The translations under genes were made by a program, and so were the position numbers. DNA of 18,609 bases, taken from positions 1-18,609 of IMG/VR virus record IMGVR_UViG_2534681878_000012; one strand, 5' to 3'. The DNA comes from a virus (taxonomy: Duplodnaviria; Heunggongvirae; Uroviricota; Caudoviricetes). Positions 1 through 14,844 of this stretch are shown one piece after another. The notes beneath the pieces were generated by a model. That model was not told where the DNA came from. It saw only the letters and a program-made list of their open reading frames with translations, and searched no databases. Numbering within the stretch: position 1 is the stretch's first letter; each line of letters opens with the position of its first letter.

Positions 1-1055
1 TCTTCTGTTTCCTGCTTAGCAGACAGTTCGCGGTTAACTTCTTCCAGGATATCTTTTTCCGGTGTATGTCGTGCAGCAGTGAGAGTTTCCTTGCTGGGGT
101 TCTCGTGATCAGTCTCCGTTAAGTAGGCGTTGATATACCCCTGAAGGCGTCCCGGGTAGTGATAAAACTCAGGGTGAGCGCTCCGGATAAGTGCAAAAAT
201 AGCGGCGCGGGAATAGTCCAGAATACCCGGGGTTGCGCGAAGTGCTGCGGACCATTCTTTGAACGGACTTTCTCTTTTCAGGACGATTTCTTTTGCGCGA
301 CGATAAACGCTGCCCGGAATTTCATAAATATTAAAATCCATCGGAAGTGTGGCTGCTGCAATCTCCACATCCAGCGTATCGAAGGTGTGTACTAAATTCG
401 GATTGCGATCGGTTTTGTTCCCGCCACCGGCATTTGCACCGGAAGCCGTACGGGTGATACGCGAAACACGATTTCCTTTCATCCACTCTTTTGTCAGCAG
501 ACCCCGATCAGTGTAGTCAGCGTCCAGGTATGCCTCGAAAAAAGCAGTTATCAGTCCCAGGTCTGAATTACCGGGATTAGGGAAAACTTTGTCAGTGTCG
601 CGTACCAGTTTGTGAAGGTCGCGAATCTCCAGCGGGTCGAGCAGCTTTGTTTTGTGAGAAATGGCCAGGGCAGTAACAGCCGGCAGTTCTTCCGCCCGTG
701 CTATATGTAATGCCTGAAGTTCTTCCCGTGCAACGTGCGTTACTGGTTTTTCGCTGCCGTGTTGCGCAAGCCAGCGAATGGGCAGCTCCTGACCAGAAAC
801 CGGCAGGAGCATATTCTCCTCAATCTCCGTCATGTCTTCGCCGTTGACGTTGGTATTGTCAGTACTGGCTGGTTTCTCCTGCACGGAGGGAGAGGGCGCG
901 ATAAATACCATTGTAATGCCATCTTCCCCGCCTTTTTCGTATCGGTTGCAGAATTCGGTATCAAACACGCCTTCAGGTGGAAGGTCATTCACAACGGGTA
1001 AATGGACGCGAACGGGTTTTTTAAAGTCGTCTTCATCATAATCGTTGTCATCCAT
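1..1055 (-). CDS. recE: Exonuclease VIII (RecE)-like protein, N-terminal portion; gene runs off the window start (3' end not in window)
   Basis: Manual minus-strand translation gives an open frame across 1..1118 reading ...VVNDLPPEG...[38 protein letters not shown]...[12 protein letters not shown]...TETDHENP..., closely matching remembered Rac RecE. It is absent from the ORF track because no stop lies in the window. First in-frame ATG is at 1055; an MST... start with a GAGG RBS sits at 1195 in another frame. Confidence 0.6.
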
Positions 1056-1306
1056 TGCGGTAATGCAGCGGGAGATGGCAACAGATAATTTTTTGCTGTA
1101 GTCCAGTAAAAACCACCTTTAATTCCCAGACGTTTTCTGACTTTGTCATTTTTTGCTTCGCAATATAGCGCAAATTCTTCTTTATCAGTGCTCATTGATA
1201 AACCTCATTACAGATTTAAGGGTGAACAAATCCCTGCCATTGCTGGCATTTTTAATCCGTTGGTATGGTGTTAATATGGCTGGAGGGTTATCCAGCCGGT
1301 GTTTCG

Positions 1307-1477
1307 TTATTCAGGTACAGCGATTACTTTTTTTACCGGGAGGCATTCACCAGAAATTTTTTGCTCGTCTCTTGCCTGGAGGCAGGATTCTTTACTGGCA
1401 TAAATTCCGGTAATCACATTCTGTGATTCACCCGTTATAAGAAAAACCGTCATCATCAGTGCAAATGCTGAAGTCAT
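1307..1477 (-). CDS. ydfD: Small protein with hydrophobic N-terminus (56 aa), YdfD-like position downstream of dicB
   Basis: ORF below the track cutoff, found by manual translation: MTSAFALMMTVFLITGESQNVITGIYASKESCLQARDEQKISGECLPVKKVIAVPE. Its ATG overlaps the dicB stop as ATGA, indicating translational coupling. Confidence 0.45.
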   Translation of the reverse strand: MTSAFALMMTVFLITGESQNVITGIYASKESCLQARDEQKISGECLPVKKVIAVPE

Positions 1478-1662
1478 TGACGTTCTCCGAAAATACCAAG
1501 TTCAAGAAGAGCAATTCGGGAAAGTATGGAATTATCATTGAGCAGATAAGGCTCATATTTCCTCATGTTAATGGCATCTTCAGTAAACTCCCGGTTACTG
1601 AGCAGAACACCAATATCAAAACAACCTTCAGACGTATTAACGTTTGGTAATAACGTTTCCAT
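1474..1662 (-). CDS. dicB: DicB-like cell division inhibitor (62 aa)
   Basis: Internal start of track ORF 1474..1767: METLLPNVNTSEGCFDIGVLLSNREFTEDAINMRK... resembles remembered K-12 DicB. GAGG RBS 8 nt upstream; lies directly downstream of DicF as in Qin. Confidence 0.75.
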   Translation of the reverse strand: METLLPNVNTSEGCFDIGVLLSNREFTEDAINMRKYEPYLLNDNSILSRIALLELGIFGERQ

Positions 1663-1831
1663 TATCGCGTCCTCAACAATGAATTTTGTGATGCAGTGCC
1701 TGGTGCCTCCAGGTGACGTTAACCAGTTAACAATTAACGCCGGATACAGAGAATCCACCCATAACACTGTTTTTGGTTTTAACTGTTCCGCGTGCGCTTA
1801 GCCGCATTCACCGCATCACAAAATTCACTTT

Positions 1832-1889
1832 AAAAAGGGCGGCAGAGCAGCCACGGAGTAAAACTGATACCGCCAAACGTCACCAGAAA
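1832..1889 (-). ncRNA. dicF: DicF small regulatory RNA (ftsZ-targeting antisense sRNA of the dicB operon)
   Basis: Minus-strand sequence tttctggtgacgtttggcggtatcagttttactccgtggctgctctgccgcccttttt matches remembered DicF apart from one base, ends in a GC stem plus U-run, and sits between the ydfA-side genes and dicB. Ends are approximate. Confidence 0.8.
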
Positions 1890-2434
1890 ATTGATAACAG
1901 AGGGCGTTGCAGCGGGGTTGTCACTTAAGCGTATGGTCAACCTGACAACCCGGTGTCCTCAATGGGGAAGGAATAACCCCGCCATACTTACCGCCGCGCC
2001 ATTTCGCGGAGTGCCACAACCGGAAGCGCACGTTCGAAGAAATCTAACGACAAGCCTTCTAAGGGAAGAGCTTCGCCGTACGCTTTCGCGTTATGCACTG
2101 ACTTTTCAGGGAAATATCCTTTCAGTAAACTGTCAGTACCGGATTCTTATCCGTGTCCGGCGCACGACCACACGTGACAGCGTGTTGGTCTCCATTTTTA
2201 ACCCAGAACCTCAATGGAGGATAAAATGCCAAACAAAAAAGAAATCCGCTTATTGAAAAACAGATTGAATGCCTGGTAAATCAACTCAGGCAATCAGGGT
2301 TATTAAAAACTCATTCAGAGTTGAGGCTCACAGAATCAGCATTCGACGATAAATTAAATAATGTCCTTTATAATGGCATTATTGATTTTAATCGTTCTGT
2401 TGGTCGCCGCGGCCCTGCTGGTGTTTCCTTATAA

Positions 2435-3073
2435 TTACCAGTCAATCCAGAGTGGACCGTGTTCAGCGTAAATATAACTGTACACATCCAGATTATATTT
2501 GTGGTCTGTTAAGAACAGGCCGCAAATACATGCCGAAGCTTCCAGTGCAGCGGCTCTGTTACTGAATAACCATGTAGCAACATTCCAGCGTTTTTCTGCA
2601 TCCCAGTCTTTCTCAAGGCCTGATACCATGAAGAAACCGTTAGTGTTGCCATCAAATAATTCTGTTTCCAAATTTTTAAGCAATGCCTGATGGACTCTTG
2701 CCAGGTATTCCGCCGGAATTTCGCCACGAATTCTGATGAGATTGTCATAAACAAACATGTTCCCCGCATATGGCGATTTTTCTTTCTTGTTTTTTAAACC
2801 AGCATCATGAGCAAACTGATCAATTTCTTCTTCCGTTGGTTTCGTATTGATGTTTTGCGCTGTCGTTTCTGCAATTTTATTTGCCACACTCTCTGAGTCG
2901 TGTTTATTTATAGACGCACAGAAATACAATCCGGTAAACGCATCGCGCACATTACGAGCCATATTATCAGTGTCTTTTTTCGTTACCGATTCCAATTCAA
3001 GTTCGTTCAGACGATGACGAAGTGTGTGTGCTGCAATCTCCTGGATTGAAGGAGGTAAATCTTTAAATTCCAT
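2435..3073 (-). CDS. Hypothetical soluble protein (212 aa) in the leftward early operon; function unknown
   Basis: Track ORF 2435..3085; preferred start is the second ATG (MEFKDLPPSIQ...) with a GAGG RBS 6 nt upstream. No TM segments or recognisable motifs. Confidence 0.6.
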   Translation of the reverse strand: MEFKDLPPSIQEIAAHTLRHRLNELELESVTKKDTDNMARNVRDAFTGLYFCASINKHDSESVANKIAETTAQNINTKPTEEEIDQFAHDAGLKNKKEKSPYAGNMFVYDNLIRIRGEIPAEYLARVHQALLKNLETELFDGNTNGFFMVSGLEKDWDAEKRWNVATWLFSNRAAALEASACICGLFLTDHKYNLDVYSYIYAEHGPLWIDW

Positions 3074-3084
3074 CGTCAACCTCA

Positions 3085-3237
3085 TCAGTCAGTGTTTCTG
3101 GCTAACCAGCGACGCGCGCCAGCTTCAGTTTTAAACGTTTTGCTTCTGGTATACGTCATCGCGGTAAACGTGCCGTCCTGATTGGGAAACACGCCACATA
3201 CCAGAGATTCGTTGTTGCCAAGATCGATAGTATCCAT
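3085..3237 (-). CDS. ydfA: YdfA-like small protein (50 aa), first gene of the leftward operon
   Basis: Internal start of track ORF 3085..3393: MDTIDLGNNESLVCGVFPNQDGTFTAMTYTRSKTFKTEAGARRWLARNTD. GAGG RBS 5 nt upstream; its stop overlaps the first ATG of the next gene. Confidence 0.55.
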   Translation of the reverse strand: MDTIDLGNNESLVCGVFPNQDGTFTAMTYTRSKTFKTEAGARRWLARNTD

Positions 3238-3313
3238 GCTGACCTCATTTCCCCTTAACGCCGGGGTAGCGGAACTGTTTGCTGAGAACACCGTGCGGTG
3301 TCTTGATGGAGGT

Positions 3314-3364
3314 AATTTAGTTTTCTCATTATTTTTCGTCAAGGCTTTTTGATGAGAAAACTCA
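3314..3364 (-). promoter_or_regulatory. Leftward early promoter (pL-like, dicB-operon promoter) with two repressor operator palindromes
   Basis: Minus strand reads TTGACG (3337-3342), 17-nt spacer, TAAATT (3314-3319). Perfect palindrome TGAGAAAACTCA at 3353-3364 and an 11/12 copy at 3317-3328 overlapping the spacer and -10. Confidence 0.55.
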
Positions 3365-3429
3365 AGTATTGGCGCAAGATAAAGCCAATGCATTGAAATG
3401 TAAGGCTTTAAAATTTTGTGAAGGGATGA

Positions 3430-3837
3430 TTATTGATGCTTGTTGCGTTTGCGAGCCTCTAATAGCTCGGTGAACAGGCGATTAAAATTCTCAACGCGGG
3501 CGCGGAGTTCGCTGAGTTGTGCTTGTTGCTCTGATTTAGGAAGTGCGCGATACAAACGCAACATCTCTAACTCATCTTCCGATAAGTCTAAGGCACTATC
3601 GAGTGAAACAGGGGGAGTTGGTGTTTTGTCCTCGTCGCCAAACAGTATCCAGGTTGGTGAACATTGCAATACCTCGGCGAGGCGATGCAAATTTTGCCCG
3701 CGCGGGGCTGTATGGTCACTTTCCCATAATGAAATTGATGAGCCAGATACGCCAGCAGCTTTGCTTAAACCGTTTTGACTTAAGCCTACCTGCTTACGTC
3801 TTTCTCTAATGCGTTGACCTAAAGTTTTCTCGTTCAT
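3430..3837 (-). CDS. dicA: DicA-like HTH (XRE family) prophage repressor, 135 aa, no peptidase domain
   Basis: Internal start MNEKTLGQRIRERRKQVGLSQ... of track ORF 3430..3888; C-terminal ...LQCSPTWILFGDEDK.PTPPV... matches remembered K-12 DicA. Divergent from the cro-like gene. Confidence 0.8.
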   Translation of the reverse strand: MNEKTLGQRIRERRKQVGLSQNGLSKAAGVSGSSISLWESDHTAPRGQNLHRLAEVLQCSPTWILFGDEDKTPTPPVSLDSALDLSEDELEMLRLYRALPKSEQQAQLSELRARVENFNRLFTELLEARKRNKHQ

Positions 3838-3849
3838 ATTTAGATATCT

Positions 3850-3892
3850 TAATAACCCTTGACTTGAGATTCCTTGAGTGATTAGCATTGAG
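3850..3892 (+). promoter_or_regulatory. Rightward early promoter (pR-like) with overlapping operator palindrome
   Basis: TTGACT at 3850-3855, about 18 nt, TAGCAT at 3874-3879; perfect 14-bp palindrome TTGAGAAAACTCAA at 3879-3892 over the -10 and start region, same core as the two leftward sites. Confidence 0.55.
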
Positions 3893-3914
3893 AAAACTCA
3901 ATATTGGAGGTGCG

Positions 3915-4142
3915 ATGTTTAAATCAGACGTAATTAATTTTTACGGTACGAAAGCCAAAGTAGCGAAAGCTGCTGGCGTTGACCCATCTGCTGTTTCTCA
4001 ATGGCAAGAGCTGGTTCCTGAAGGTCGCGCGATGCGTCTACAGGAGGCATCTGGCGGGGGGCTTCAGTATGATCCCAAAGTTTATGACGAATATCGTAAG
4101 ACGAAGCGGGCGGGGCGGTTGAACAATGAAAATCACTCCTGA
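3915..4142 (+). CDS. dicC: Cro-like DNA-binding protein (DicC/YdaS-like), 75 aa
   Basis: Internal start MFKSDVINFYGTKAKVAKAAG... of track ORF 3888..4142 with GGAGG 8 nt upstream; C-terminal ...VPEGRAMRLQEASGGGLQYDPKVYDEYRKTKRAGRLNNENHS matches remembered DicC. Confidence 0.75.
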   Translation: MFKSDVINFYGTKAKVAKAAGVDPSAVSQWQELVPEGRAMRLQEASGGGLQYDPKVYDEYRKTKRAGRLNNENHS

Positions 4143-4677
4143 ACAGGCTCGTGAGGCTCTGGATGCCTGGATATGTCGACCAGGAATGACACAGGAGCAG
4201 GCGACGATATTAATCACTGAAGCATTCTGGGCTTTGAAAGAGCGCCCGAACATCGATGTTCAGCGTGTCACAGATGAAGGTGGCGCGGTTGATCAGCGAG
4301 CGCTTGGCGTTAATCGAGTGAAGATATTCGAACGCTGGAAGGCTATCGATACTAGGGATAAGCGTGAAAAGTTCACGGCGCTAGTGCCTGCAATTATGGA
4401 GGCTATCCGGATTAATGATTTCAGGTTGTATCGTGAAATTAGTGACGGAAAAAGCATCACGTACATGATCGCCGGGTTAAACAAAGAATATGGCGATGTG
4501 GTGGAGTCCGGGCTGCTTTTTGCGGATCCATCTGTTGTGGAACGTGAGACTGGCGAGCTTATAGAAAAAGCTATTGCTTTCAAGCATGCGTATCGTCAGC
4601 AGTATCAATATTACTTTGCAGATAAACAAATATCTGCCAGGGGTTCGTATGAGTATCGATGCACTACGATGGGCTAA
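4126..4677 (+). CDS. Hypothetical early protein (183 aa) in the cII/YdaT position after cro
   Basis: Track ORF; its start overlaps the 3' end of dicC in another frame. No confident family assignment. Confidence 0.5.
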   Translation: MKITPEQAREALDAWICRPGMTQEQATILITEAFWALKERPNIDVQRVTDEGGAVDQRALGVNRVKIFERWKAIDTRDKREKFTALVPAIMEAIRINDFRLYREISDGKSITYMIAGLNKEYGDVVESGLLFADPSVVERETGELIEKAIAFKHAYRQQYQYYFADKQISARGSYEYRCTTMG

Positions 4678-5230
4678 AAAGGTGAAAACCGGCAGTTCAT
4701 CCAGTAAGTCTGTATTGACCTGGCTTGCTGATATGTGCGGTGCCGATTTGTGTGCATACCCGTCTGTATCTGCACTGGCAGAAGTAACGGAACTGAACAA
4801 AAAGACTGTGCAGGACAGCTTACGACACCTGATGGAGATTGGGTTAATTGTTGATACCGGTGAGAGAAAAGGCAGAACAAAGCAAATTGTGGTGTACCGA
4901 CTTATCGGTGTAGAAGAAAGTGTTGCCGAGCCTGAATACACCCAAAAACGGGTGTCTTTAAAGGTGGGTAAAATTGGTGCTGTTAATAAAAACAGTACCG
5001 AAAACGGTTATGTTTCAGCACAAAAGAGCCCCAAAAACGGAACTCTTTGTTGCATGGAAAATAACCAAAGACACCCAAATTTTCCATCAAAGACACCCAA
5101 AAACGGATCACGGAACCCAAAGGAACCCAAAGATCTAAACCCCACACATAACGCACGCGAGAGTGCTCCGATCAGTGAGCAGGAAGTTTTGTCGTTACAG
5201 GCAGCCCCCATGTATTCCTGGATGGCCTGA
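4649..5230 (+). CDS. Replication initiator (lambda O-like) with N-terminal winged-helix domain and low-complexity linker
   Basis: Internal start MSIDALRWAKKVKTG... with AGGGG RBS 6 nt upstream (track ORF starts at 4574). ...VQDSLRHLMEIGLIVD... is typical of phage initiator N-terminal domains; the linker carries PKNG repeats coinciding with DNA iterons. Confidence 0.6.
   Translation: MSIDALRWAKKVKTGSSSSKSVLTWLADMCGADLCAYPSVSALAEVTELNKKTVQDSLRHLMEIGLIVDTGERKGRTKQIVVYRLIGVEESVAEPEYTQKRVSLKVGKIGAVNKNSTENGYVSAQKSPKNGTLCCMENNQRHPNFPSKTPKNGSRNPKEPKDLNPTHNARESAPISEQEVLSLQAAPMYSWMA
4997..5132. repeat. Iteron-like direct repeats (ACCCAAA(AACGG)), candidate origin of replication inside the O-like gene
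   Basis: Five CCCAAA cores (5030, 5074, 5095, 5115, 5125) plus two degenerate copies (4997, 5064), several extended to ACCCAAAAACGG, at about 10-44 bp spacing. Confidence 0.5.
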
Positions 5231-5253
5231 GCGAACCCATCGGAAAATTTCCG

Positions 5254-5688
5254 ATGACCGATAGCTGGTATCCGTCACGGGATTTTCGACGACGGGCTGC
5301 GTTGTGGGGGATGGCTTTGCCGGAGACAGAATTTACACCTGCTGAACTTACCGCATTCCGGGACTACTGGGCAGCGGAGGGGAAAGTGTTTACGCAGATT
5401 CAGTGGGAGCAGAAATTCGCCCGTCACGTAAATCACGTCAGGGCGCAGGTTAAACCAGTCAGCAAGGGGGTAAACCATGCAGCAGCACCAGGTGGCACCG
5501 CATCACGGGCAGTTCAGGAAATTCGGGCAGCACGTGAGCAGTGGGAACGTGAAAACGGATTTATCAGCGACGGAAACGGCCTGGAAGCTGTGGGAACTCA
5601 TGGGGGAGGTTTATTCGAACCGCTGGACCCAGAAGAACGGGGCCGCACCTTCGAAGCTCTGGATTGCACAGATTGGCGCGATGACTGA
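5254..5688 (+). CDS. DnaT-like replication-associated protein (144 aa as drawn)
   Basis: Track ORF; N-terminal half protein-like, C-terminal tail Gly-rich and overlapping the P-like gene out of frame; stop overlaps an in-frame P-like ATG as ATGACTGA. Confidence 0.45.
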   Translation: MTDSWYPSRDFRRRAALWGMALPETEFTPAELTAFRDYWAAEGKVFTQIQWEQKFARHVNHVRAQVKPVSKGVNHAAAPGGTASRAVQEIRAAREQWERENGFISDGNGLEAVGTHGGGLFEPLDPEERGRTFEALDCTDWRDD

Positions 5689-6142
5689 GCAGCAAATCCG
5701 GCAGGTCTGCCGCCAGTGCATGGACCGCTGCCGGGCGGGTGAAACATGGCCTCCGGACCTGGCTGAGTTTGTGGCGCTGATTTCGGAAAGCGGGGCCAAT
5801 CCATTTGGCCTGACGGTGGATGCTGTGATGGAGGAGTATCGCCGCTGGCGTAATGAGTCCTGGCGATATAACGGAAGCGACAAATATCCGTGGCCTCAGC
5901 CTGTGCTGTATCACATTTGCCTCGAGATGCGTTCAAAGGGGATTGAACGCCAGATGACCGAAGGGGAATTAAAACGGCTTGCAGAACGGCAGCTGACGAA
6001 ATGGGCAAAGCATGTTAGTAACGGCCTGAGCGTTCCGCCAGTACGGCGACAACTGGCGGCACCAAAACGCCCGTTGGGACCAACGCCAATTGAGTTGCTG
6101 AAACAGGAGTATGAACGCCGGAAAGCGGCTGGTTTTGTCTGA
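5477..6142 (+). CDS. Replication protein P-like (helicase loader homolog), 221 aa
   Basis: Track ORF with AGGGGG RBS about 6 nt upstream. ...ETWPPDLAEFVAL...YPWPQPVLYHICLEMR...TEGELKRLAERQL... resembles remembered lambda P. Start uncertain: 5477, 5600 or 5681. Confidence 0.55.
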   Translation: MQQHQVAPHHGQFRKFGQHVSSGNVKTDLSATETAWKLWELMGEVYSNRWTQKNGAAPSKLWIAQIGAMTEQQIRQVCRQCMDRCRAGETWPPDLAEFVALISESGANPFGLTVDAVMEEYRRWRNESWRYNGSDKYPWPQPVLYHICLEMRSKGIERQMTEGELKRLAERQLTKWAKHVSNGLSVPPVRRQLAAPKRPLGPTPIELLKQEYERRKAAGFV

Positions 6143-6176
6143 TTTGAGAAGTAATTTTTATCCGGAGGAAATTTTA

Positions 6177-6947
6177 ATGGGAACCGTATTGCATGCACTG
6201 AAAGCGATGGGTAAAGCCAATTCTGTTGAACTGGCGGCGCGGCTTGATATCAGCCGTGAAGAAGTTCTCAACGAACTGTGGGAACTCAAAAAAAATGGCG
6301 TTGTTGATAAAACGGGTCACACCTGGTTTCTGGCTGTCGAAGGCGAATCCGGGGTAACCGAAGGGCAGGCACTACAACCTGAAGCGCCGGATGTGGTAAC
6401 CGAAGAGGTCGCTCCAAAAGTTAGCGCTGACATGATGATTGAGTTTATCGCTCAGGAGGGGGCTAAAACCTGTGAAGAAATAGCGGGTAAGTTCGGTGTC
6501 AGTACTCGCAAGGTTGCTTCCACGCTGGCGGTGGTAACCGCAACGGGGCGGCTGGCACGCGTTAATCAGAACGGTAGATTTCGTTACTGCATGCCGGGCG
6601 ATAATTTACCAGCAGAGCCGAAAGCCGCGCTGGTAACGGAAAATGATGGTAAGGCCTTTCCTCAGCCAGCAGGTGCTGCGTTACCAGTCCGGGAAGCCGC
6701 AACACAGGAAGAAATTAAAACAGAAACTGTGGCGGACATTGTGCAGCCGTTGCCATCGTTTACCGAAACGCAAGCAGATGAGCTGATTTTTCCGTCCCTT
6801 CGCAGGGCAAACCTGGCGCTGCGCAGGGCGAAAAGTGATGTTCAGAAGTGGGAGCGAGTCTGCGCCGCGCTGCGGGAGCTGAACAAGCACCGGGATATTG
6901 TTCGACAGATTACTGATTCTTCCCGCCGTGTTGTATCGGAAAAGTGA
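6177..6947 (+). CDS. Hypothetical protein with two predicted winged-helix-like segments (DUF1627-like, from memory)
   Basis: Internal start MGTVLHALKAMGK... of track ORF 6111..6947 with GGAGG RBS; HTH-like stretches at N-terminus and mid-protein. Confidence 0.55.
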   Translation: MGTVLHALKAMGKANSVELAARLDISREEVLNELWELKKNGVVDKTGHTWFLAVEGESGVTEGQALQPEAPDVVTEEVAPKVSADMMIEFIAQEGAKTCEEIAGKFGVSTRKVASTLAVVTATGRLARVNQNGRFRYCMPGDNLPAEPKAALVTENDGKAFPQPAGAALPVREAATQEEIKTETVADIVQPLPSFTETQADELIFPSLRRANLALRRAKSDVQKWERVCAALRELNKHRDIVRQITDSSRRVVSEK

Positions 6948-6962
6948 TTGCCGGAGGCGCTT

Positions 6963-7355
6963 ATGGCAAAAGTATTTACACCAGAAGAGCGGGAAGAAGT
7001 GAAGGCGCGCATTGTGGAATTCGTGCGCCTGAGCGGACGAGAAACTTTTCGACAACTGGCAGATAAAACGGGTGTCAGTAAGACCGCTATTCGTTGTTTA
7101 TCTGGTGCGCTTGCGGCCAGTGGTGATGTCTGGCTCTCTGGTTGCGGGGTATTTCTATCAGAGCAGGCGTATCGCGTATGGCGCAAGACACCGGAGAAGG
7201 CTGCTGACCCGACACTGATTCGAAAGTTACCTGACGGAGAAATACGTCGTTACAACAGACGGCAGAACATAATTTGTCGTGAGTGCCGCCAGAGCGAAGT
7301 TATGCAGCGTGTGCTGGCGTTCTATCGGGGTAATTTTCAGGAGGTGATGGAGTGA
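6963..7355 (+). CDS. Hypothetical protein (130 aa) with HTH-like segment
   Basis: Internal start MAKVFTPEER... with GGAGG 6 nt upstream (track ORF 6948..7355); stop overlaps the next gene's GTG as GTGA. Confidence 0.55.
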   Translation: MAKVFTPEEREEVKARIVEFVRLSGRETFRQLADKTGVSKTAIRCLSGALAASGDVWLSGCGVFLSEQAYRVWRKTPEKAADPTLIRKLPDGEIRRYNRRQNIICRECRQSEVMQRVLAFYRGNFQEVME

Positions 7356-7648
7356 GGGTGAGAGTTTATATTGCCGGTCCAATGACGGGATATGAAAATT
7401 TCAACCGTGAGGCGTTTCACAAGGCGGAAGAGGAACTGAAACGGGAAGGGCATACCGTCTTAACTCCGGCAGTACTTCCGGACGGGCTGACACAGCCGCA
7501 CTACATGGATATTTGCATGGCAATGATTCGTTGTGTGGATGCGATTTACATGCTGAATGGCTGGCAGCGGTCAGCGGGCGCTAAGGCAGAGCTGGCACTG
7601 GCGGAGAAACTGGGGCATGCGGTGATTTATCAGGAGGTGGCTCGATGA
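7352..7648 (+). CDS. DUF4406 / nucleoside 2-deoxyribosyltransferase-like small protein (98 aa)
   Basis: GTG start; N-terminal VYIAGPMTGYENFNREAFHKAEEEL... is the Rossmann-like signature of the NDT/DNPH1-like fold; stop overlaps the next ATG as ATGA. Confidence 0.6.
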   Translation: MRVRVYIAGPMTGYENFNREAFHKAEEELKREGHTVLTPAVLPDGLTQPHYMDICMAMIRCVDAIYMLNGWQRSAGAKAELALAEKLGHAVIYQEVAR

Positions 7649-8020
7649 GAGAGGTTAACTATGAGGCGCTTCGTGAGGCAGCACAAAACTATCAGTCGAC
7701 GCTGGCGTGGTATCAGGCTACCCCGGACAGCCCAAATGCTGAACGGGATTGTGATGCGGCTCTTGCTGCGTTTAAGCGTCATATCCGTCATCGGGAAGCG
7801 GATATTATCGCTGGTAGCTGGTTTGCTGGATGCGCGGGAAGTTCAATTACCGACTCGCTACGACCTTCGATATGGACACCCGATAAATGCAGATGAGCGA
7901 CATGTCATGATACCTAAAGAAAATGGCAGTTGGCTTTACCTGATTGACCTAGAACACGCATTACGCGTCGCTGGCATTCGCATCAAAGGAGAGGAGCATG
8001 GAAATAAAACCAGAGGATGA
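7645..8020 (+). pseudogene. Ead/Ea22-like gene, copy A, apparently frameshifted and shortened
   Basis: MREVNYEALREAAQ... N-terminus (frame of 7645) shares the Ea22-like motif with copy B; conserved C-terminus ...AGIRIKGEEHGNKTR is in the +1 frame (ends 8020). Frame switch lies near 7810-7830; total span about 125 codons versus 239 in copy B. Confidence 0.5.
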
Positions 8021-8354
8021 GTTAAGCAATATCGTTTTATTTCCGGTAAAAGAGGATGACCCTCGTAATCAGGTTAATTTTCTTTATGAGCCATCGGAAA
8101 GACCATATTGTCATCACGCCTCTGTTCGGGTTGACGAAAAAGAGCGCCAGGTCCGCTGTAAAATCTGCGGTGCGGTTGTGGAGCCGTTTGACTGGATGCT
8201 CTCTGTGGCGAAAAGAGAAACCAGACTGGCAGATGATGTAAGGCTATTGCGCCAGGAGGAACAGGAAAGGCGGAAAAATATAGAAAAGTTAATTCAGATT
8301 GAACGTAACGCGAAAGCGCGGATACGCAGGGCGACAAAATCCAGAACTGAATAA
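7998..8354 (+). CDS. Hypothetical protein with putative zinc ribbon (CHH...CxxC), cassette copy A, 118 aa
   Basis: Track ORF; start lies inside the Ea22-like 3' end; about 95% identical to 9696..10052. Confidence 0.65.
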   Translation: MEIKPEDELSNIVLFPVKEDDPRNQVNFLYEPSERPYCHHASVRVDEKERQVRCKICGAVVEPFDWMLSVAKRETRLADDVRLLRQEEQERRKNIEKLIQIERNAKARIRRATKSRTE

Positions 8355-8404
8355 ATAAATTTAGCGCTGTAAATAAAATCTAATCCTGAACTGGAGGTAT
8401 ATTT

Positions 8405-8617
8405 ATGTTAAATACACAGAAAGCCATTAATGCGGAAAAATATAACGAGTGGGCAAGAAAATTCTCTGAGCAGATTTTTAAAATTACTGGCGATGAGAAT
8501 GCGGCAAAAAATGAATTAGAACCGTGGACACCTGAAGGAAACGCACCAAATTATTGCTGGTGGGAGGTTGATCCGGTTGATGTTGCAAATGAAGCCATGA
8601 GTTACCACAACGATTAA
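8405..8617 (+). CDS. Hypothetical small protein (70 aa), cassette copy A
   Basis: Track ORF with GGAGG RBS; about 88% identical to 10101..10313. Confidence 0.65.
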   Translation: MLNTQKAINAEKYNEWARKFSEQIFKITGDENAAKNELEPWTPEGNAPNYCWWEVDPVDVANEAMSYHND

Positions 8618-8621
8618 TGTC

Positions 8622-8643
8622 AGGAGGCCGCCCGAAAGGGCGG
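8622..8643 (+). promoter_or_regulatory. SD plus GC hairpin with GAAA loop (AGGAGG, CCGCCC-GAAA-GGGCGG) upstream of the 8651 ATG
   Basis: AGGAGG 8622-8627, 6-bp GC stem 8628-8643, ATG at 8651; no U-run, so not a classical terminator. Identical element at 10318-10339. Confidence 0.5.
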
Positions 8644-8650
8644 TAGTTAA

Positions 8651-8833
8651 ATGCGAAAGTTTAAAATAATTATTGAAACGGGAATAGCCGGTGGAGATTT
8701 CGAGGATGAATTCGAAGTGGATGATGATGCGACGCCTGATGAAATACATGACGAAGCAAAAGATATTTTCTTTAACTACTGCAATTATTCATATCACGAA
8801 ATAAAAGACGAAGAGGAAGAACAAAATGGCTGA
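8651..8833 (+). CDS. Small highly acidic protein (60 aa)
   Basis: Track ORF rich in D/E (DFEDEFEVDDDATPDEIHDE...KDEEEEQNG); stop overlaps the next ATG. Confidence 0.55.
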   Translation: MRKFKIIIETGIAGGDFEDEFEVDDDATPDEIHDEAKDIFFNYCNYSYHEIKDEEEEQNG

Positions 8834-9002
8834 TTTTGGTTCAACTAAATACAGCGTCAGTTTTGAAGAATGGCATGAACTGTTAATGGAATATGCAGAG
8901 TTACGTGGTGGCAGTGCTGCTGATGCTGAAGCATGGCGTGATGATTATGAAGCAGGAAAAAATCCGGTCGAAGCATATTGTGATGAGTGGGGCGATGAAT
9001 GA
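8826..9002 (+). CDS. Small acidic protein (58 aa), not in ORF track
   Basis: Manual translation MADFGSTKYSVSFEEWHELLMEYAELRGGSAADAEAWRDDYEAGKNPVEAYCDEWGDE; start overlaps the previous stop and its stop overlaps the Ea22-like B start as ATGA. Confidence 0.5.
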   Translation: MADFGSTKYSVSFEEWHELLMEYAELRGGSAADAEAWRDDYEAGKNPVEAYCDEWGDE

Positions 9003-9718
9003 GCGAGATTGACTATCAGGCGCTGCGTGAAGCAGCAGAGAAAGCAACTAAAGGATGCTACATCGTAGGGCATACATCGGGCAATCAGCATGGGAATATA
9101 ACAGGAGTTTTTGTTTGTCAAAAATGGAAAGGAGAGCCCGGTGGCGTAATTGCAGAATGTCATGTTAACTGCCTGGTTGAAACAGATGCTCAGGCTTACG
9201 CAAACGCTGAATTTATTGCTGCCTTTAATCCAAATGTTGCGCTGGCACTACTGGATGAACGGGAAAGAAACCAGCAATACATCAAATCACGCGACCAGGA
9301 GAACGAGGAGATTGCGCTTACGGAAGGGAAGCTGCTAATCGAAAACGGCCGGCTTGTTGCCGATACGCTACGCCACTTAGCTGATAACGAAATCGACTCT
9401 GATTATTTTGCTATCACCTCAACGAATGAGAACGGTACTGAAATTGATCATGAGATGGCTATTACCGATTACGCACTGCAAGCTGCCGGAACTGTAGACG
9501 AATTGGTTGCGGCGTTGGAATCCGCAGAGAAGCGCATTGCAGAACTGGAAGCACGGGAAATATCGCTCCCAGAACGTAGCAGCATGCTTCATCGAACAGA
9601 TTTTCACGATGATTACCAAACGGTAATGGCATACAAAGTTTCTGAAGTCATCGCTGCAATCCGCGCCGCTGGCATTCGCATCAAAGGAGAGGAGCATGGA
9701 AATAAAACCAGAAGATGA
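8999..9718 (+). CDS. Ead/Ea22-like family protein, copy B (239 aa, intact)
   Basis: N-terminal MSEIDYQALREAAEKA... and C-terminal ...AGIRIKGEEHGNKTRR typical of the family; track ORF. Confidence 0.7.
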   Translation: MSEIDYQALREAAEKATKGCYIVGHTSGNQHGNITGVFVCQKWKGEPGGVIAECHVNCLVETDAQAYANAEFIAAFNPNVALALLDERERNQQYIKSRDQENEEIALTEGKLLIENGRLVADTLRHLADNEIDSDYFAITSTNENGTEIDHEMAITDYALQAAGTVDELVAALESAEKRIAELEAREISLPERSSMLHRTDFHDDYQTVMAYKVSEVIAAIRAAGIRIKGEEHGNKTRR

Positions 9719-10052
9719 GTTAAGCAATATCGTTTTATTTCCGGTAAAAGAGGATGACCCACGTAATCAGGTTAATTTTCTCTATGAGCCATCGGAAAGA
9801 CCATATTGCCATCACGCCTCTGTCCGGGTTGACGAAAAAGAGCGTCAGGTCCGCTGTAAAATCTGCGGTGCAGTTGTGGAGCCATTTGACTGGATGCTCT
9901 CTGTGGCGAAAAGAGAAACCAGACTGGCAGATGATGTAAGGATCTTGCGCCAGGAGGAACGGGAAAGGCGGAGAAATATAGAAAAGCTAATTCAGATTGA
10001 GCGTAACGTGAAAGCGCGGATACGCAGGGTGACAAAATCCAGAACTGAATAA
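9696..10052 (+). CDS. Hypothetical protein with putative zinc ribbon, cassette copy B, 118 aa
   Basis: Paralog of 7998..8354; same overlap with the Ea22-like 3' end. Confidence 0.65.
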   Translation: MEIKPEDELSNIVLFPVKEDDPRNQVNFLYEPSERPYCHHASVRVDEKERQVRCKICGAVVEPFDWMLSVAKRETRLADDVRILRQEERERRRNIEKLIQIERNVKARIRRVTKSRTE

Positions 10053-10100
10053 TTAAATTTAGCTCTGTTAAAAATTTAATCCTTAACCGGAGGTATATCA

Positions 10101-10313
10101 ATGTCAAACGCACAGAAAGTTATTAACGCTGAAAAATATAACGAGTGGGTGAAAAAGTTCTCAGAGCAGATTTTTAAAATTACTGGCGACGAGAATGCGG
10201 CAAAAAATGAATTAGAGCCGTGGACACCTGAAGGTGTCGACCCAAATTATTGCTGGTGGGATGTTGATCCAGTTGATGCTGCAAATGAAGCTATGAGTTA
10301 TCACAACGATTAA
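10101..10313 (+). CDS. Hypothetical small protein (70 aa), cassette copy B
   Basis: Paralog of 8405..8617 with GGAGG RBS. Confidence 0.65.
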   Translation: MSNAQKVINAEKYNEWVKKFSEQIFKITGDENAAKNELEPWTPEGVDPNYCWWDVDPVDAANEAMSYHND

Positions 10314-10317
10314 TGTC

Positions 10318-10339
10318 AGGAGGCCGCCCGAAAGGGCGG
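10318..10339 (+). promoter_or_regulatory. Second copy of the SD plus GAAA-loop hairpin, followed by a 4-codon mini-ORF
   Basis: Same sequence as 8622-8643; ATG at 10342 opens MKSD-stop (10342..10356). Confidence 0.45.
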
Positions 10340-10513
10340 TAATGAAAAGTGACTGAATTAACCAAAGAGAAATTAATCGAAGAAGCCAAATTAAAAATAG
10401 CGATTGCGAAATGCTACCCCAATTCAGGGATGGCACGGGTATAGGGCGAGTTATTCAAAATTGCACTGGCATAGCTGGAAGCAGATCCAGTTAAACGAGT
10501 TAACTCAGATCAG

Positions 10514-11227
10514 ATGCACCGAGTCTGCTTAGAAGCTAATCGCTATTTAGATAAATATGACGCGATGGCGAAAGAGGTAAATAAGTTGCTTGGACGCATC
10601 GCCCCGCCAGCGCCAGTATTTAACGGCGAATACGGTGACGCATATCAGGGCGCTCGTGAAGACCTGTCCATCTGGAAACGGCGAGCGCTTGAAGCTGATG
10701 AGCACGTTCGGCGACTGGAGCAAATCAATGACCACATGGTGAAAGAGGCGCAGGGAGAATCACGCATGGGCGAGCCTGTAATACGTGAGCCAGCACCGGT
10801 AGTGCCTGAAGAAGCAACTCCGGAAAACGTAGAAATGCTCTCTGGCTATGTTTCAACGTACAAATTAACCGATAGCGAGCGCGATATTGCTGCCGAAATA
10901 TGGAACGCCTGCCGCGCCGCCATGCTTCAGGCTGGAAACTTTCGGGAAAATAAGGGTTCGTCAACCAATAATTTTCGGGAAATCTCGGAAACGTCAACCA
11001 ACTATCCGGTAACTCCGGATGGTTGGATAAGCTGTAGTGAGCGAATGCCGGATGATGGTCAGCACGTAATTATTTTATGTGATGGCGCATTCGTTCTTTA
11101 TGCGCAATATCGAGACGGTGAGTTTTTTGATGTAGTCCGTAATGGTGATGAATTTTTCGAAACACAGAGCCGCAATGTAACCGACTGGATGCCGCTACCA
11201 GAACCGCCGCAGGAGGTGCGCCAATGA
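10514..11227 (+). CDS. DUF551-domain protein (Ead/Ea22-associated C-terminal domain), 237 aa as drawn
   Basis: C-terminal ...DGWISCSERMPDDGQHVIILCDGAFVLYAQYRDGEFFDV...WMPLPEPP resembles DUF551. No good RBS at 10514; the upstream same-frame sequence is interrupted by two TAG codons (10442, 10472). Confidence 0.55.
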   Translation: MHRVCLEANRYLDKYDAMAKEVNKLLGRIAPPAPVFNGEYGDAYQGAREDLSIWKRRALEADEHVRRLEQINDHMVKEAQGESRMGEPVIREPAPVVPEEATPENVEMLSGYVSTYKLTDSERDIAAEIWNACRAAMLQAGNFRENKGSSTNNFREISETSTNYPVTPDGWISCSERMPDDGQHVIILCDGAFVLYAQYRDGEFFDVVRNGDEFFETQSRNVTDWMPLPEPPQEVRQ

Positions 11228-11307
11228 TCTGGCCTGAAGCCTTTGCAATTACAGGCGTTGCTATAGCTATTGATTTTTTAGTATATGTTATTTGTCGGTG
11301 GGGGTAA
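11224..11307 (+). CDS. Very small hydrophobic peptide (27 aa), not in track
   Basis: MIWPEAFAITGVAIAIDFLVYVICRWG; ATG overlaps the preceding TGA. Confidence 0.35.
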   Translation: MIWPEAFAITGVAIAIDFLVYVICRWG

Positions 11308-11342
11308 AAACGTTCGCCGGGATTCACACCAAAGGAGGGAAT

Positions 11343-11447
11343 ATGTCGGATGATATTTCACTGGCAATGGAAGGTGCGCTGGCTGTTATTGCTGTTGTGG
11401 GCGTTTACTGCCTGGTTGTGTTTTTGATGGATCGACTAGGGAACTGA
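11343..11447 (+). CDS. Small hydrophobic peptide (34 aa), not in track
   Basis: MSDDISLAMEGALAVIAVVGVYCLVVFLMDRLGN with AAGGAGGG RBS 5 nt upstream. Confidence 0.45.
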   Translation: MSDDISLAMEGALAVIAVVGVYCLVVFLMDRLGN

Positions 11448-11635
11448 ATTCATTACGATATGGGAATTCCCATATCGGGTAAAAACGGTTTGCGGTAAAG
11501 CGAGAGTTAAGTAGAATTGCTGCGGGTGCTTGAGGCTATCTGCCTCGGGCATGAACACCAACGGCAGATAGAGAAAAGCCCCAGTTAACATTACGCGTCC
11601 GGCAAGACGCTTAACATTAATCTGAGGCCATATCT

Positions 11636-11848
11636 ATGCTCTACACACGTAGGTTAGCCTCTTACGTGCCGAAAGGCAAGGAGAAGCAGGCTATGAAGCA
11701 GCAAAAGGCGATGCTAATCGCCCTGATCGTCATCTGTTTAACCGTCATAGTGACGGCACTGGTAACGAGGAAAGACCTCTGCGAGGTACGAATCCGAACC
11801 GGCCAGACGGAGGTCGCTGTCTTCACAGCTTACGAACCTGAGGAGTAA
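11636..11848 (+). CDS. hokD: Hok/Gef-family type I toxin (51-aa core from 11693) with in-frame Mok-like N-terminal extension
   Basis: Core MKQQKAMLIALIVICLTVIVTALVTRKDLCEVRIRTGQTEVAVFTAYEPEE matches remembered HokD/RelF. Structured leader (9-bp inverted repeat 11536-11544 / 11563-11571) and 3' stem-loop as in hok mRNAs. Confidence 0.8.
   Translation: MLYTRRLASYVPKGKEKQAMKQQKAMLIALIVICLTVIVTALVTRKDLCEVRIRTGQTEVAVFTAYEPEE
11644..11679 (-). promoter_or_regulatory. Putative Sok-like antisense RNA promoter opposite the mok/hok start
   Basis: Minus strand reads TTGCCT (11674-11679), 17 nt, TAACCT (11651-11656); transcription would run leftward across the 11636 start. Inferred by analogy with hok/sok. 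Confidence 0.35.
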
Positions 11849-11855
11849 GAGACCT

Positions 11856-11877
11856 GGCGAGGGAGAAATCCCTCGCC
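11856..11877 (+). other. Perfect 9-bp stem-loop with GAAA loop just after the hok stop
   Basis: GGCGAGGGA-GAAA-TCCCTCGCC with no U-run; a weaker hairpin plus T-rich tract follows at about 11919-11945. Confidence 0.5.
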
Positions 11878-11950
11878 ACCTCTGATGTGTCAGGCATCCT
11901 CAACGCACCCGCACTTAACCTGCTTCGGCGGGTTTTGTTGTATTAGAATA

Positions 11951-12268
11951 TCAGGATATTACCTGGATCCCGTTTTTCTCGACAACTGAAAGAAGCCGAA
12001 GAGCTGCACCTCCCGGGCGTTTCACTCCTCGTTCCCAGTCTGATATCAGGTTTTTACTGACGTTGAGGTATCTGGCAAAAACAGGTTGAGACAGATGCTC
12101 TCGTTCTCGCAGTGCACGGATCCTTTCCGGAGACATTACCGGCGCAGGCTGAAGACAAGTTTCATCGAATTCGCGCATAGTTTGTTTTGTGATTGCACCG
12201 ATATCATGGAGTGACTCCATCATTTCATGTACAGATGCAAGTGCATCACTGCGGTAATTTTTACTCAT
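11951..12268 (-). CDS. HTH (XRE-like) antitoxin, HigA-2-like architecture (C-terminal HTH), 105 aa
   Basis: Track ORF; C-terminal ...SQPVFARYLNVSKNLISDWERGVKRP... is HTH-like; lies downstream of and overlaps the toxin by 8 nt. Confidence 0.65.
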   Translation of the reverse strand: MSKNYRSDALASVHEMMESLHDIGAITKQTMREFDETCLQPAPVMSPERIRALREREHLSQPVFARYLNVSKNLISDWERGVKRPGGAALRLLSVVEKNGIQVIS

Positions 12269-12632
12269 TGGGTACCTCCGTGAACTGGCCTTGTTGAATC
12301 AATTGTGCCAGCTGTTCATCAGTAAGATTGAGGACATGGGGAGCGGCTTTTCGAAAAGCATTTTCCTCTATAGCAGTGATATTCTCTCGTTCATTCTTTG
12401 CGTATGCGTAGATGAAAAAGGCTTTTTCTGCAACGCGGTAAAAAATTATTGTCCGGTAACCGCCTGATTTTCCGCCACCACTTCGGGCTAATCTTTGTTT
12501 AATGACACCACTACCCAAATTTGCGGATATGATCCCCTTATCGGCCTGCTCCACGATTTTGCGCAGCGATTTATCGGAAATCCGATGTTTTCGGGCGAAA
12601 CGTTCAAACCAGGCGTTTTTGAAAATTCGCAT
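12261..12632 (-). CDS. RelE/ParE-superfamily toxin, HigB-2-like, 123 aa
   Basis: Motif ...RLARSGGGKSGGYRTIIFYRVAEKAFFIYAYAKNERENI... resembles remembered Vibrio HigB-2; toxin-first order is typical of HigBA modules. Confidence 0.65.
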   Translation of the reverse strand: MRIFKNAWFERFARKHRISDKSLRKIVEQADKGIISANLGSGVIKQRLARSGGGKSGGYRTIIFYRVAEKAFFIYAYAKNERENITAIEENAFRKAAPHVLNLTDEQLAQLIQQGQFTEVPNE

Positions 12633-12652
12633 ACCTGCCTCTGCATTTTATA

Positions 12653-12667
12653 TAACACATAGTGTTA
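12653..12667. promoter_or_regulatory. Inverted repeat TAACAC-ATA-GTGTTA upstream of the toxin gene, candidate autoregulatory operator
   Basis: Perfect 6-bp arms with 3-bp spacer, 21 bp upstream of the toxin start codon. Confidence 0.5.
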
Positions 12668-12855
12668 CACCATGTGGACTATGGAGGCAATCTTTATTTG
12701 AGAATGCTTGCTGATTTATCGGTGTTCAAAAAACAGACGTAATTCAGATTGTATAAACGGCAGACAGAAAAAGTCATTGTTCTTGCGCATAAAATCCTCA
12801 GATTTACTGAGTGAAATGCGTCTCTTTTCATGGTTATAGTCCGAGAGAAGCGATA

Positions 12856-13083
12856 ATGCATTTCATTTCCTTTACGTCAGGAGGTGTTGTGAAAATCCCA
12901 GCCAGTTTGATCCCGGGGTTTTATGAGAGCACGCGCCCGGTTGTTGTTTACAGAAACAGTGATGGTTCTTTTCAATGTGGTTTTGTTATGCGAAGTAATG
13001 AGGTTGTTGTAAGCCTTTCTCTTCTTTCTGAGGTAAGAGAGTTGGCAGGATTACCTGTTGATGATATTCAGAAGCAGCTATAA
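12856..13083 (+). CDS. Hypothetical small protein (rem-like position upstream of ydfU)
   Basis: Track ORF 12811..13083; possible starts GTG 12811, ATG 12856, or GTG 12889 with GGAGG RBS. Confidence 0.45.
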   Translation: MHFISFTSGGVVKIPASLIPGFYESTRPVVVYRNSDGSFQCGFVMRSNEVVVSLSLLSEVRELAGLPVDDIQKQL

Positions 13084-13118
13084 AATCAGGCTGACTTGAA
13101 CCGTCGCTGAGAAACACC

Positions 13119-13406
13119 GTGCCACCGGAGATCCCGATGGCGCACGATAGCAGATTGCACAATTCTGCCGCCCTTGCCAGTAGGCAAGGGCGGTGTTCGC
13201 ACGTATTTAAAACCGACTGGTTCCAGCATCCCCTATGCACTGAAGAACAGGCCGAATGGCTGATCCAGTGTTACCGCAGGCGTGGTTACGAGTTTCAGAA
13301 AGATCTCAGCTTCGATCGTCGTCACTGGATAATCTCCGCCAGGCTCCCTTATTCCGAACGCCCACCGCGTCCGTCCCGCACATTCCAGCAGCGCATCTGG
13401 AGGTAA
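13119..13406 (+). CDS. Hypothetical protein (95 aa)
   Basis: Track ORF ending just before the ydfU-like start; no recognisable motifs. Confidence 0.3.
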   Translation: MPPEIPMAHDSRLHNSAALASRQGRCSHVFKTDWFQHPLCTEEQAEWLIQCYRRRGYEFQKDLSFDRRHWIISARLPYSERPPRPSRTFQQRIWR

Positions 13407-13407
13407 C

Positions 13408-14457: not shown

Positions 14458-14469
14458 AAGAGGTGACTG

Positions 14470-14844
14470 ATGCCCATAGATTTGGTTTTACCTTACCCGC
14501 CAACGGTGAACACCTACTGGCGACGTCGTGGCAGCACATATTTTATCTCGGAGGAGGGAAAGCGTTATCGCCGGGCTGTGGCGCTTATTGTTCGCCAGCA
14601 GCGGCTGAAATTAATCCTGTCCGGAAGGCTGGCGATAAAGGTGATTGCAGAGCCACCGGATAAGCGTCGTCGCGACCTGGACAATATCCTGAAAGCACCG
14701 CTGGATGCGCTGACGCATGCGGGAGTGTTAATGGACGATGAGCAGTTTGATGAAATCAATATCGTTCGTGGTCAGCCAGTATCTGGTGGACGTCTGGGGG
14801 TGAAGATTTACCCCATAATGCTTGAAGGGCAGGTCAAAAAATGA
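14470..14844 (+). CDS. rusA: RusA Holliday junction resolvase
   Basis: ...LPYPPTVNTYW...PDKRRRDLDNILKAPLDALTHAGVLMDDEQ... matches remembered RusA catalytic region; AAGAGG RBS; lies just upstream of Q. Confidence 0.8.
   Translation: MPIDLVLPYPPTVNTYWRRRGSTYFISEEGKRYRRAVALIVRQQRLKLILSGRLAIKVIAEPPDKRRRDLDNILKAPLDALTHAGVLMDDEQFDEINIVRGQPVSGGRLGVKIYPIMLEGQVKK

Follow-up and report, generated by a model that had tools for sequence, protein, structure and literature searches.

The best described relative of the locus analysed here is the dicA-dicC immunity locus of Qin, a cryptic prophage of Escherichia coli K-12; knowledge of it goes back to Béjar et al. 1986/1988, as a passage of PMC10448788 recounts, and Yun et al. 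2012 (PMC3441716). Its operators are Oc, Om and Oa, at dicCp/dicAp, and others at dicBp. Binding of the K-12 repressor DicA to the operator Oc is supported in vivo by titration with multicopy clones and by an rpsL reporter, one base change abolishes it, and the start of dicC was mapped inside Oc by rapid amplification of cDNA 5' ends (PMC3441716). For the partner protein DicC, chromatin immunoprecipitation with sequencing (ChIP-seq) found binding to be strongest at either side of dicA and yielded the palindrome TTNG...CNAA (PMC11430063). For dicB, the Reg-Seq paper gives the position of the DicA site as unknown (PMC7567609). Non-cleavable repressors of the Gifsy type (GfoR/GfhR) are governed by antirepressors, and Qin DicA by Rem (PMC10448788). 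Here we examine the corresponding region of the IMG/VR virus record IMGVR_UViG_2534681878_000012, whose positions 1 to 18,609 (hereafter, the window), a lambdoid prophage of E. coli O157, match strain O157 FDAARGOS_293 with 100% identity. From the comparisons described below, a short inverted repeat found on both sides of its repressor gene very probably represents operators belonging to a lambdoid immunity switch like Qin dicA/dicC.

The central gene of this region encodes a repressor of the DicA family, which is 58% identical to K-12 DicA and has the same length, 135 amino acids. Its Pfam matches are to helix-turn-helix (HTH) families only: its N-terminal HTH domain is homologous to that of P22 c2, but cleavable repressors of the P22 c2/LexA-like class add to such a domain a C-terminal S24 peptidase domain for RecA-dependent autocleavage, and no Peptidase_S24 was found in the protein. 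A short repressor lacking the Ala-Gly/S24 cleavage domain is a trait shared with Qin and with the Gifsy-type prophages. The window also has the gene order of Qin, with a dicC-like gene, the divergent dicA-like gene, a ydfA-like gene, DicF and dicB, and with a 212-amino acid open reading frame (ORF) between DicF and the ydfA-like gene; YdaT-like and replication genes lie further to the right of the cro-like (dicC-like) gene. Since DicF and dicB are downstream of the leftward promoter-like site, the operators would control cell-division inhibitors, as in Qin. The immunity region is ~98% identical to those of phages mEp460_ev081 and HannyBb and, whereas Qin is a cryptic remnant, mEp460_ev081, a close relative of the window prophage, is a functional phage.

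Direct reading and a pattern search of the 18.6-kb window located the 12-mer TGAGAAAACTCA in two exact copies, at 3353-3364 and 3889-3900, both on the plus strand, and an 11/12 copy (TGAGAAAACTAA) on the minus strand at 3317-3328. The motif is an interrupted inverted repeat (TGAG/AAAA/CTCA), with 4-bp arms that extend to 5 bp, without mismatches, in the 14-bp form TTGAGAAAACTCAA at 3888-3901, and with an asymmetric A4 centre. An earlier note on this DNA, made from the letters alone, described the copy at 3353-3364 as a perfect 12-bp palindrome; the copy is exact, but the motif is self-complementary at 8 of 12 positions and is not a perfect palindrome, because its reverse complement (TGAGTTTTCTCA) differs and each match occurs on one strand only. 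That note also reported a 14-bp extended copy, which does exist, although at 3888-3901 and not at 3879-3892, so that the range of 3314-3892 proposed for the whole arrangement cuts through it. The 12-mer has four matches with at most one mismatch in the 18.6 kb, against 0.07 expected, and four were reached in 0 of 200 shuffles; the scanned 37-kb stretch of the host chromosome contains no copies beyond these four. The fourth match, TGATAAAACTCA, lies at 160-171 within the exonuclease gene, with a mismatch that breaks an arm and with arms of 7/10 in the 14-bp frame, and it is probably a chance match. Two longer versions of the motif were tried and rejected: the similarity that continues past both exact copies (CTCAA[G]TATTGG) lies outside the site, because it is not conserved in related haplotypes, and a 16-bp extension (ATTGAG...CTCAAT) is not conserved either. 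A literature search for the 12-mer, on both strands, retrieved unrelated primer matches only, and in the literature on DicA-like repressors nothing turned up on operators of this allele.

The strong copies, here designated OR1 for the right-hand site and OL1 and OL2 for the left-hand sites (Table 1), overlap or adjoin two divergent early promoter-like sites that flank the repressor gene, as is characteristic of lambdoid operators. OR1 borders on the rightward -10 and includes the predicted +1 (~3895), ending 13 nt before the cro-like ATG at 3915; the earlier placement of this copy over the rightward promoter was thus roughly right, if imprecise. Much the same applies to OL1, which had been placed inside the leftward promoter: it covers the spacer plus the initial bases of the -10 TAAATT, and its sole mismatch (C to A) is the A at position 2 of this -10. 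OL2 lies 9 bp upstream of the leftward -35, with its centre at about -51. The leftward promoter-like site, with a predicted start at ~3307 on the minus strand, would drive the ydfA-like gene, DicF, dicB, exo, xis and int; on the other side, natural variants of the rightward -10 all retain TAnnnT.

Table 1. Coordinates of predicted operator sites, promoter-like elements and genes of the immunity region in the window.
Feature	Position	Strand	Sequence, elements or family match
OR1 (Oc-equivalent)	3888-3901	+	TTGAGAAAACTCAA; 12-mer at 3889-3900
OR2-like weak site (putative, low confidence)	3864-3877	+	TTGAGATTCCTTGA; arms 8/10
OR3-like weak site (Oa-equivalent; putative)	3839-3852	+	TTTAGATATCTTAA; arms 8/10, symmetric G-to-T change
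OL2	3352-3365	+	ATGAGAAAACTCAA; arms 9/10; exact 12-mer at 3353-3364
OL1	3316-3329	-	minus-strand ATGAGAAAACTAAA; 12-mer at 3317-3328, 11/12
Leftward early promoter-like site (PL/dicBp equivalent)	3314-3342	-	TTGACG 3342-3337, 17 nt, TAAATT 3319-3314
Rightward early promoter-like site (PR/dicCp equivalent)	3859-3888	+	TTGACT 3859-3864, 18 nt, TAGCAT 3883-3888; predicted +1 ~3895
DicA-family immunity repressor, 135 aa	3430-3837	-	NCBIfam NF007257, 239.8 bits (cut-off 101), residues 1-135/135
DicC/P22_Cro-like protein, 75 aa	3915-4142	+	DicC subfamily, 164 bits; divergent from repressor; 70% identical to K-12 DicC
ydfA-like gene, first of leftward operon	3085-3237	-	DUF1391 family match
dicB	1472-1660	-	cell-division inhibitor gene
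DicF small RNA	1837-1888	-	Rfam, 75 bits

These positions also bear on whether the copies act as DNA sites at all. The sequence TTGAGAAAACUCAA is able to fold into a hairpin with a stem of 5 bp and a loop of 4 nt, and OR1 belongs to the 5' leader predicted for the cro-like mRNA, while OL2 falls in the 3' part of the transcript of the repressor, as would suit RNA hairpins functioning in a 5' untranslated region or as terminators. We rejected this reading, to which we give next to no chance: in the three contexts folded, the predicted structures are weak and not significant (-2.4 to -4.6 kcal/mol, z-scores of -0.1 to -1.8), a consensus scan found no terminator-like site, and OL1, being in the spacer and -10 of the leftward promoter, would not be transcribed from it. 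Besides, the stem of OR1 would be truncated in the RNA, because the predicted +1 falls inside it.

The arrangement of DNA sites closely follows that of Qin. In the Qin-type locus L002, Oc (TTGTTAGTTATGACTAACAA, 2269-2288; dicC ATG at 2302) overlaps the -10 (TATCTT) of a TTGACT promoter; like OR1, it is a strong operator located 13 nt before the cro-like ATG that overlaps or adjoins the -10 and the +1. On the left side, the K-12 promoter dicBp (TTGACC, 17 nt, TAATCT) contains TGTTAGTCATGGCTAA inside its spacer and -10, and there is a second site, containing TGTTAG, upstream of its -35 (L002 ~1758-1777), with the two centres being 35 bp apart versus 36 bp in the window. From this correspondence, the probable K-12 DicA/DicC operators at dicBp are, in L002 coordinates, ATGTTAGTCATGGCTAATCT at 1723-1742, over the -10 and spacer, and ATGTTAGCTATAGCAT at ~1758-1777, upstream of the -35. 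What differs between both prophages is the half-site. The window sites are of the form TTGAG-N4-CTCAA and those of K-12 of the form TGTTAG-N6-CTAACA (TTGAG versus TTAGT in a common 14-bp frame), and we found no TGTTAG-N6-CTAACA site at the homologous positions of the window. The recognition helices differ as well, SGSSISLWESD in the window versus SHVSVSQWERG in K-12, with changes at 6 of the 11 positions of helix 3. Because both the half-site and helix 3 are different, the locus is predicted to be heteroimmune to Qin.

A scan of viral contigs yielded 80 loci with repressors 96-100% identical to that of the window, allowing us to evaluate conservation of the sites within this immunity type. The 14-bp OR1 is invariant in 79 IMG/VR loci and 4 others, among which there are 16 distinct haplotypes of the right intergenic region, and the three columns at each side of OR1 are the most polymorphic of that region. 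Likewise, OL1 and OL2 show singleton variants only in 43 haplotypes of the left intergenic region, where the promoter spacer (3330-3338) and the DNA flanking OL2 (3366-3374) are heavily polymorphic. Another inverted repeat, ATTGGC-N10-GCCAAT, occurs at 3368-3389 just past OL2, in the 3' region of the repressor gene, and is probably non-functional because its arms are not conserved in divergent haplotypes of the same type (L003-like). Immunity regions of E. coli-type prophages also occur in three metagenome-assembled genomes assigned to Bacillota, Veillonella parvula and Collinsella (L089, L090 and L094), two of them with 99% identity to the window repressor and one being of the type of K-12 DicA; mis-binning of these contigs is almost certain.

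The motif also changes with the repressor. We compared fourteen DicA-family alleles, from E. coli, E. albertii, E. ruysiae, E. whittamii, three Citrobacter species, Enterobacter, Buttiauxella, Superficieibacter, Rahnella, Symbiopectobacterium and an unclassified Enterobacteriaceae isolate, and in every one of them the three positions hold an inverted repeat particular to that allele. For instance, in the 14-bp frame OR1 reads TTGAG-AAAA-CTCAA in the window, TTAGT-TATG-ACTAA in K-12, TTAGA-AAAG-TCTAA in L097, TTAGG-AAAA-CCTAA in L096 and ATAAC-TCAA-GTTAT in L104. We tested this covariation by comparing the OR1 arms of each type with the two best sites downstream of the repressor gene of each type; only the arms of a fixed 5+4+5 frame were scored, because A/T-rich DNA made generic 14-mer matching of the right against the left intergenic region too noisy. 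Cognate pairs showed a mean of 3.1 arm mismatches, versus 5.7 for non-cognate pairs, and none of 20,000 permutations was as good (p≈5e-5). All 85 loci whose repressor is of this type or is the Buttiauxella relative contain the exact 12-mer, 82 of them in two copies, and the 25 other loci lack it altogether. The repressor of this relative, from Buttiauxella gaviniae, is 74% identical to that of the window and has the same recognition helix (SSISLWESD), and its locus keeps the motif at all three positions (TTGAGAAAACTCAG, TTGAGAAAACTCAG, TTGAGAAAACTAAA) amid unrelated flanks.

Both patterns are pertinent to the possibility that the copies are sites for a host factor, such as the regulator YjdC, for which an action on DicA targets has been reported, or a nucleoid protein, or non-functional remnants of a duplicated promoter segment. 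The intergenic DNA is indeed A/T-rich, and a passage of PMC11430063, citing its ref. 14, reports a host regulator that represses DicA targets when DicA is absent. Yet a host site would not vary with the allele of the prophage repressor, whereas the motif is type-specific and is kept in a different genus along with the same recognition helix. A simple duplication is disfavoured because the similarity among copies ends at the 14-bp core, with flanks that are unrelated and polymorphic. We therefore regard a host-factor or remnant origin as highly improbable.

In BLAST comparisons with heteroimmune alleles, similarity breaks at ~3308-3320 and at ~4011; the exchangeable immunity cassette consequently encloses all of the sites along with the repressor gene and, from its cro-like neighbour, the DNA-binding half (to ~4010). 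As in lambdoid phages, an allele-specific motif thus travels with its repressor in mosaic exchange. The proposal of the earlier note that the motif carries the immunity specificity is supported by these comparisons, in that the motif changes with the repressor allele and that a cassette from ~3309/3320 to 4011 contains all the sites; being specific to this repressor allele, the motif would set the immunity group.

Covariation alone cannot separate the repressor from the Cro-like protein, because the N-terminal part of the latter shares the mosaic cassette. The sites might then be recognised only by the Cro-like (DicC-like) protein, with the DicA-like repressor binding elsewhere; indeed, the ChIP-seq signal at both sides of K-12 dicA is that of DicC, and the paper reporting on dicBp assigned no position to DicA. 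We consider this very unlikely, because OR1 is the positional homologue of Oc, for which binding of K-12 DicA is supported in vivo (see above), and because the site geometry is that of the P22 c2 operator and the repressor N-terminus is a gapless homologue of P22 c2, differing at the contact positions 33 and 37. In addition, loci L004 and L005 share identical Cro recognition helices, yet their outer operator bases differ, tracking helix 2 of the repressor. Type-specific covariation, site positions and weak predicted folds disfavour the three alternatives to operators of the DicA-like repressor that we considered.

The comparison with P22 also suggests how specificity might be determined. Residues 1-72 of the repressor align without gaps to the N-terminal domain of P22 c2 (E=8e-16; structures named for comparison, PDB 2R1J and 3JXB), whereas the C-terminal domains are unrelated, P22 c2 having 216 amino acids and a RecA-cleavable domain. 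The P22 operators and the window sites alike have 5-bp arms around an A/T centre of 4 bp, with TT at positions 6-7 counted from the dyad, and in both cases the partner is a divergent gene of the P22_Cro family; however, the P22 consensus ATTTAAGATATCTTAAAT (TTAAG-N4-CTTAA) differs from TTGAG-N4-CTCAA in one base per half-site. When P22 c2 is bound to DNA, its Val33 touches the TTAA half-site, and Gln37 makes a contact with a thymine of each half-site (PMC5175364). K-12 DicA retains Val and Gln at these positions, but the window repressor has Ser33 and Leu37, besides Gly instead of Asn32 and His instead of Glu42. Among the 14 types, a small sample, residue 37 tracks the half-site, with Gln accompanying TTAG/CTAA, Leu accompanying CTCAA and Lys accompanying GTTA, from which we infer a relation between this residue and the half-site. 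This suggests that residues 33 and 37 are specificity determinants. It is possible, although on balance we doubt it, that the allele (Ser33/Leu37, half-site TTGAG) defines a distinct and apparently undescribed class of DNA recognition within the P22-c2/DicA fold.

The AAAA centre is strictly conserved in sequence and orientation, and is the same in all three strong sites and in Buttiauxella; it might add a component of shape readout or a directional discrimination between repressor and Cro. The operators of the phage 434 repressor and Cro are likewise of 14 bp with short conserved arms (ACAA-N6-TTGT), and their central bases, which are probably not contacted, are conserved as in the window sites, although half-site and spacing are different. 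The HTH_3 fold is shared with 434 Cro (E=2.6e-6), reflecting only a distant homology.

The earlier note counted three copies of the motif; the three strong sites stand, but this is an undercount, because the 77-bp right intergenic region also contains two weaker arm-only matches (OR2-like and OR3-like in Table 1). The OR2-like site falls within the rightward promoter spacer, its centre 24 bp from that of OR1, and is invariant in loci of the same type; Buttiauxella keeps its TGAG half, adjoining the -35 (as CTGAG), but has a poor second arm. The OR3-like site immediately precedes the repressor ATG, with its centre 25 bp away from that of the OR2-like site, and ten of the 14 family types have an inverted repeat at an offset of 0-2 from this ATG. 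At the background density of the window, ~0.04 of such matches, with 8/10 arms, would be expected in 77 bp. Moreover, the two intergenic regions that flank the repressor gene, 269 bp in total, account for five of the 11 arm-only matches with at most two mismatches in the window. Lambdoid operators have three adjacent sites per side, of graded affinity and bound cooperatively; here, the right side has one perfect site and two with 8/10 arms, spaced 24 and 25 bp, and the left side only two sites, 36 bp apart. The two additional matches are at best probable weak or cooperative sites, in a series that resembles a three-part OR.

The DNA preceding the repressor gene shows two further features. The sequence ATTTAGATATCTTAAT, at 3838-3853 and directly upstream of the ATG, is near the P22 operator consensus minus one base per half, and it is kept in all four alleles with the helix ISLWESD (window, Buttiauxella, C. 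braakii and Superficieibacter) despite their differing OR1. Also, no Shine-Dalgarno sequence (…AAGATATCTAAATATG) and no clear sigma-70 promoter are present upstream of the repressor ATG (3838-3860, minus strand), as is the case of K-12 dicA, which suggests that the maintenance transcript of the repressor is leaderless or near-leaderless, like that of lambda cI from PRM.

Several observations weigh against the interpretation of these repeats as operators, or limit what supports it. With arm-only matching at up to two mismatches there is no enrichment over the whole window (11 found, 8.5 expected). The promoter-like sites are consensus matches only, with two found versus 1.4 expected in shuffles. 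The haplotypes are not independent, because loci of the same type are closely related. These loci show no variation over most of the 77 bp of the right intergenic region, so that conservation alone does not single out the weak OR sites. Finally, neither Oa nor Om of K-12, taken in isolation, was bound by DicA in vivo (PMC3441716), and the two weak OR sites may thus not function.

Even so, the gene identity, the Qin-equivalent positions, the conserved sites within variable flanks, the allele covariation and the mosaic cassette together support, at the level of sequence, what the earlier note had advanced, that the sites are operators of the DicA-like repressor. In the switch that we propose, the repressor would bind as a dimer, through its P22-c2-like HTH domain, to the 14-bp TTGAG-N4-CTCAA sites, whose half-sites are one helical turn apart with an A-tract centre. 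Occupancy of OR1 would block the rightward promoter of the cro/dicC-like and replication genes and may also stimulate the weak promoter of the repressor itself, by analogy with K-12 DicA at Oc. On the left, OL1, over the -10, and OL2, upstream of the -35, would when occupied block the leftward promoter and its operon, from the ydfA-like gene to int. The Cro-like protein would compete at the same sites, shutting off synthesis of the repressor; that it uses the same sites is very likely, by analogy with lambdoid switches and with the K-12 DicC ChIP-seq (PMC11430063).

Because the repressor lacks an S24 peptidase domain, derepression would be expected to depend on an antirepressor or on bistable switching, as in Qin (PMC10448788). 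Unlike with Qin, however, no homologue of the antirepressor Rem was found in the window by tblastn or BLASTP, and small ORFs at the rem-equivalent position had no NCBIfam match. A 64-amino acid ORF at 12890-13084 (plus strand) occupies the position of rem in Qin, between a toxin-antitoxin module and a ydfU-like gene, and is a candidate cognate antirepressor, with no detectable similarity to Rem.

Other features of the prophage were noted in passing. An Rfam scan gave nothing at the motif sites and, elsewhere in the window, only DicF, sok, STnc100 and AgvB. The antitoxin RNA sok (11524-11698, plus strand; 111.7 bits) is beside hokD and is followed by a RelE/ParE-type toxin-antitoxin pair, as in Qin. 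STnc100 (16433-16623, plus strand; 145 bits) is directly adjoined by the anti-GcvB small RNA AgvB (16624-16685, minus strand; 96.5 bits), in a late or antiterminator-proximal region of the prophage. In the early-right region, an ead/Ea22-like gene and a gene for a hypothetical protein of 118 amino acids occur twice in tandem (locus L001, 22647-23356 and 24001-25054; window, ~7646-8355 and ~9000-10053).

In all, our analysis reveals no new mechanism, and the type of locus is known, but the operator specificity of this allele is apparently undescribed. It allows the E. coli O157 prophage and the related functional phages mEp460_ev081 and HannyBb to be assigned to an immunity group, which they are predicted to share and which would be heteroimmune to K-12 Qin. 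The switch would keep dicB, DicF and the recombination and replication genes silent. The comparison also probably locates the K-12 operators at dicBp, and it predicts which DicA-type prophages could repress one another in strains carrying several of them. If the relation between residue 37 and the half-site holds, it would amount to a simple specificity code, making the immunity groups of DicA-type prophages predictable from sequence alone.

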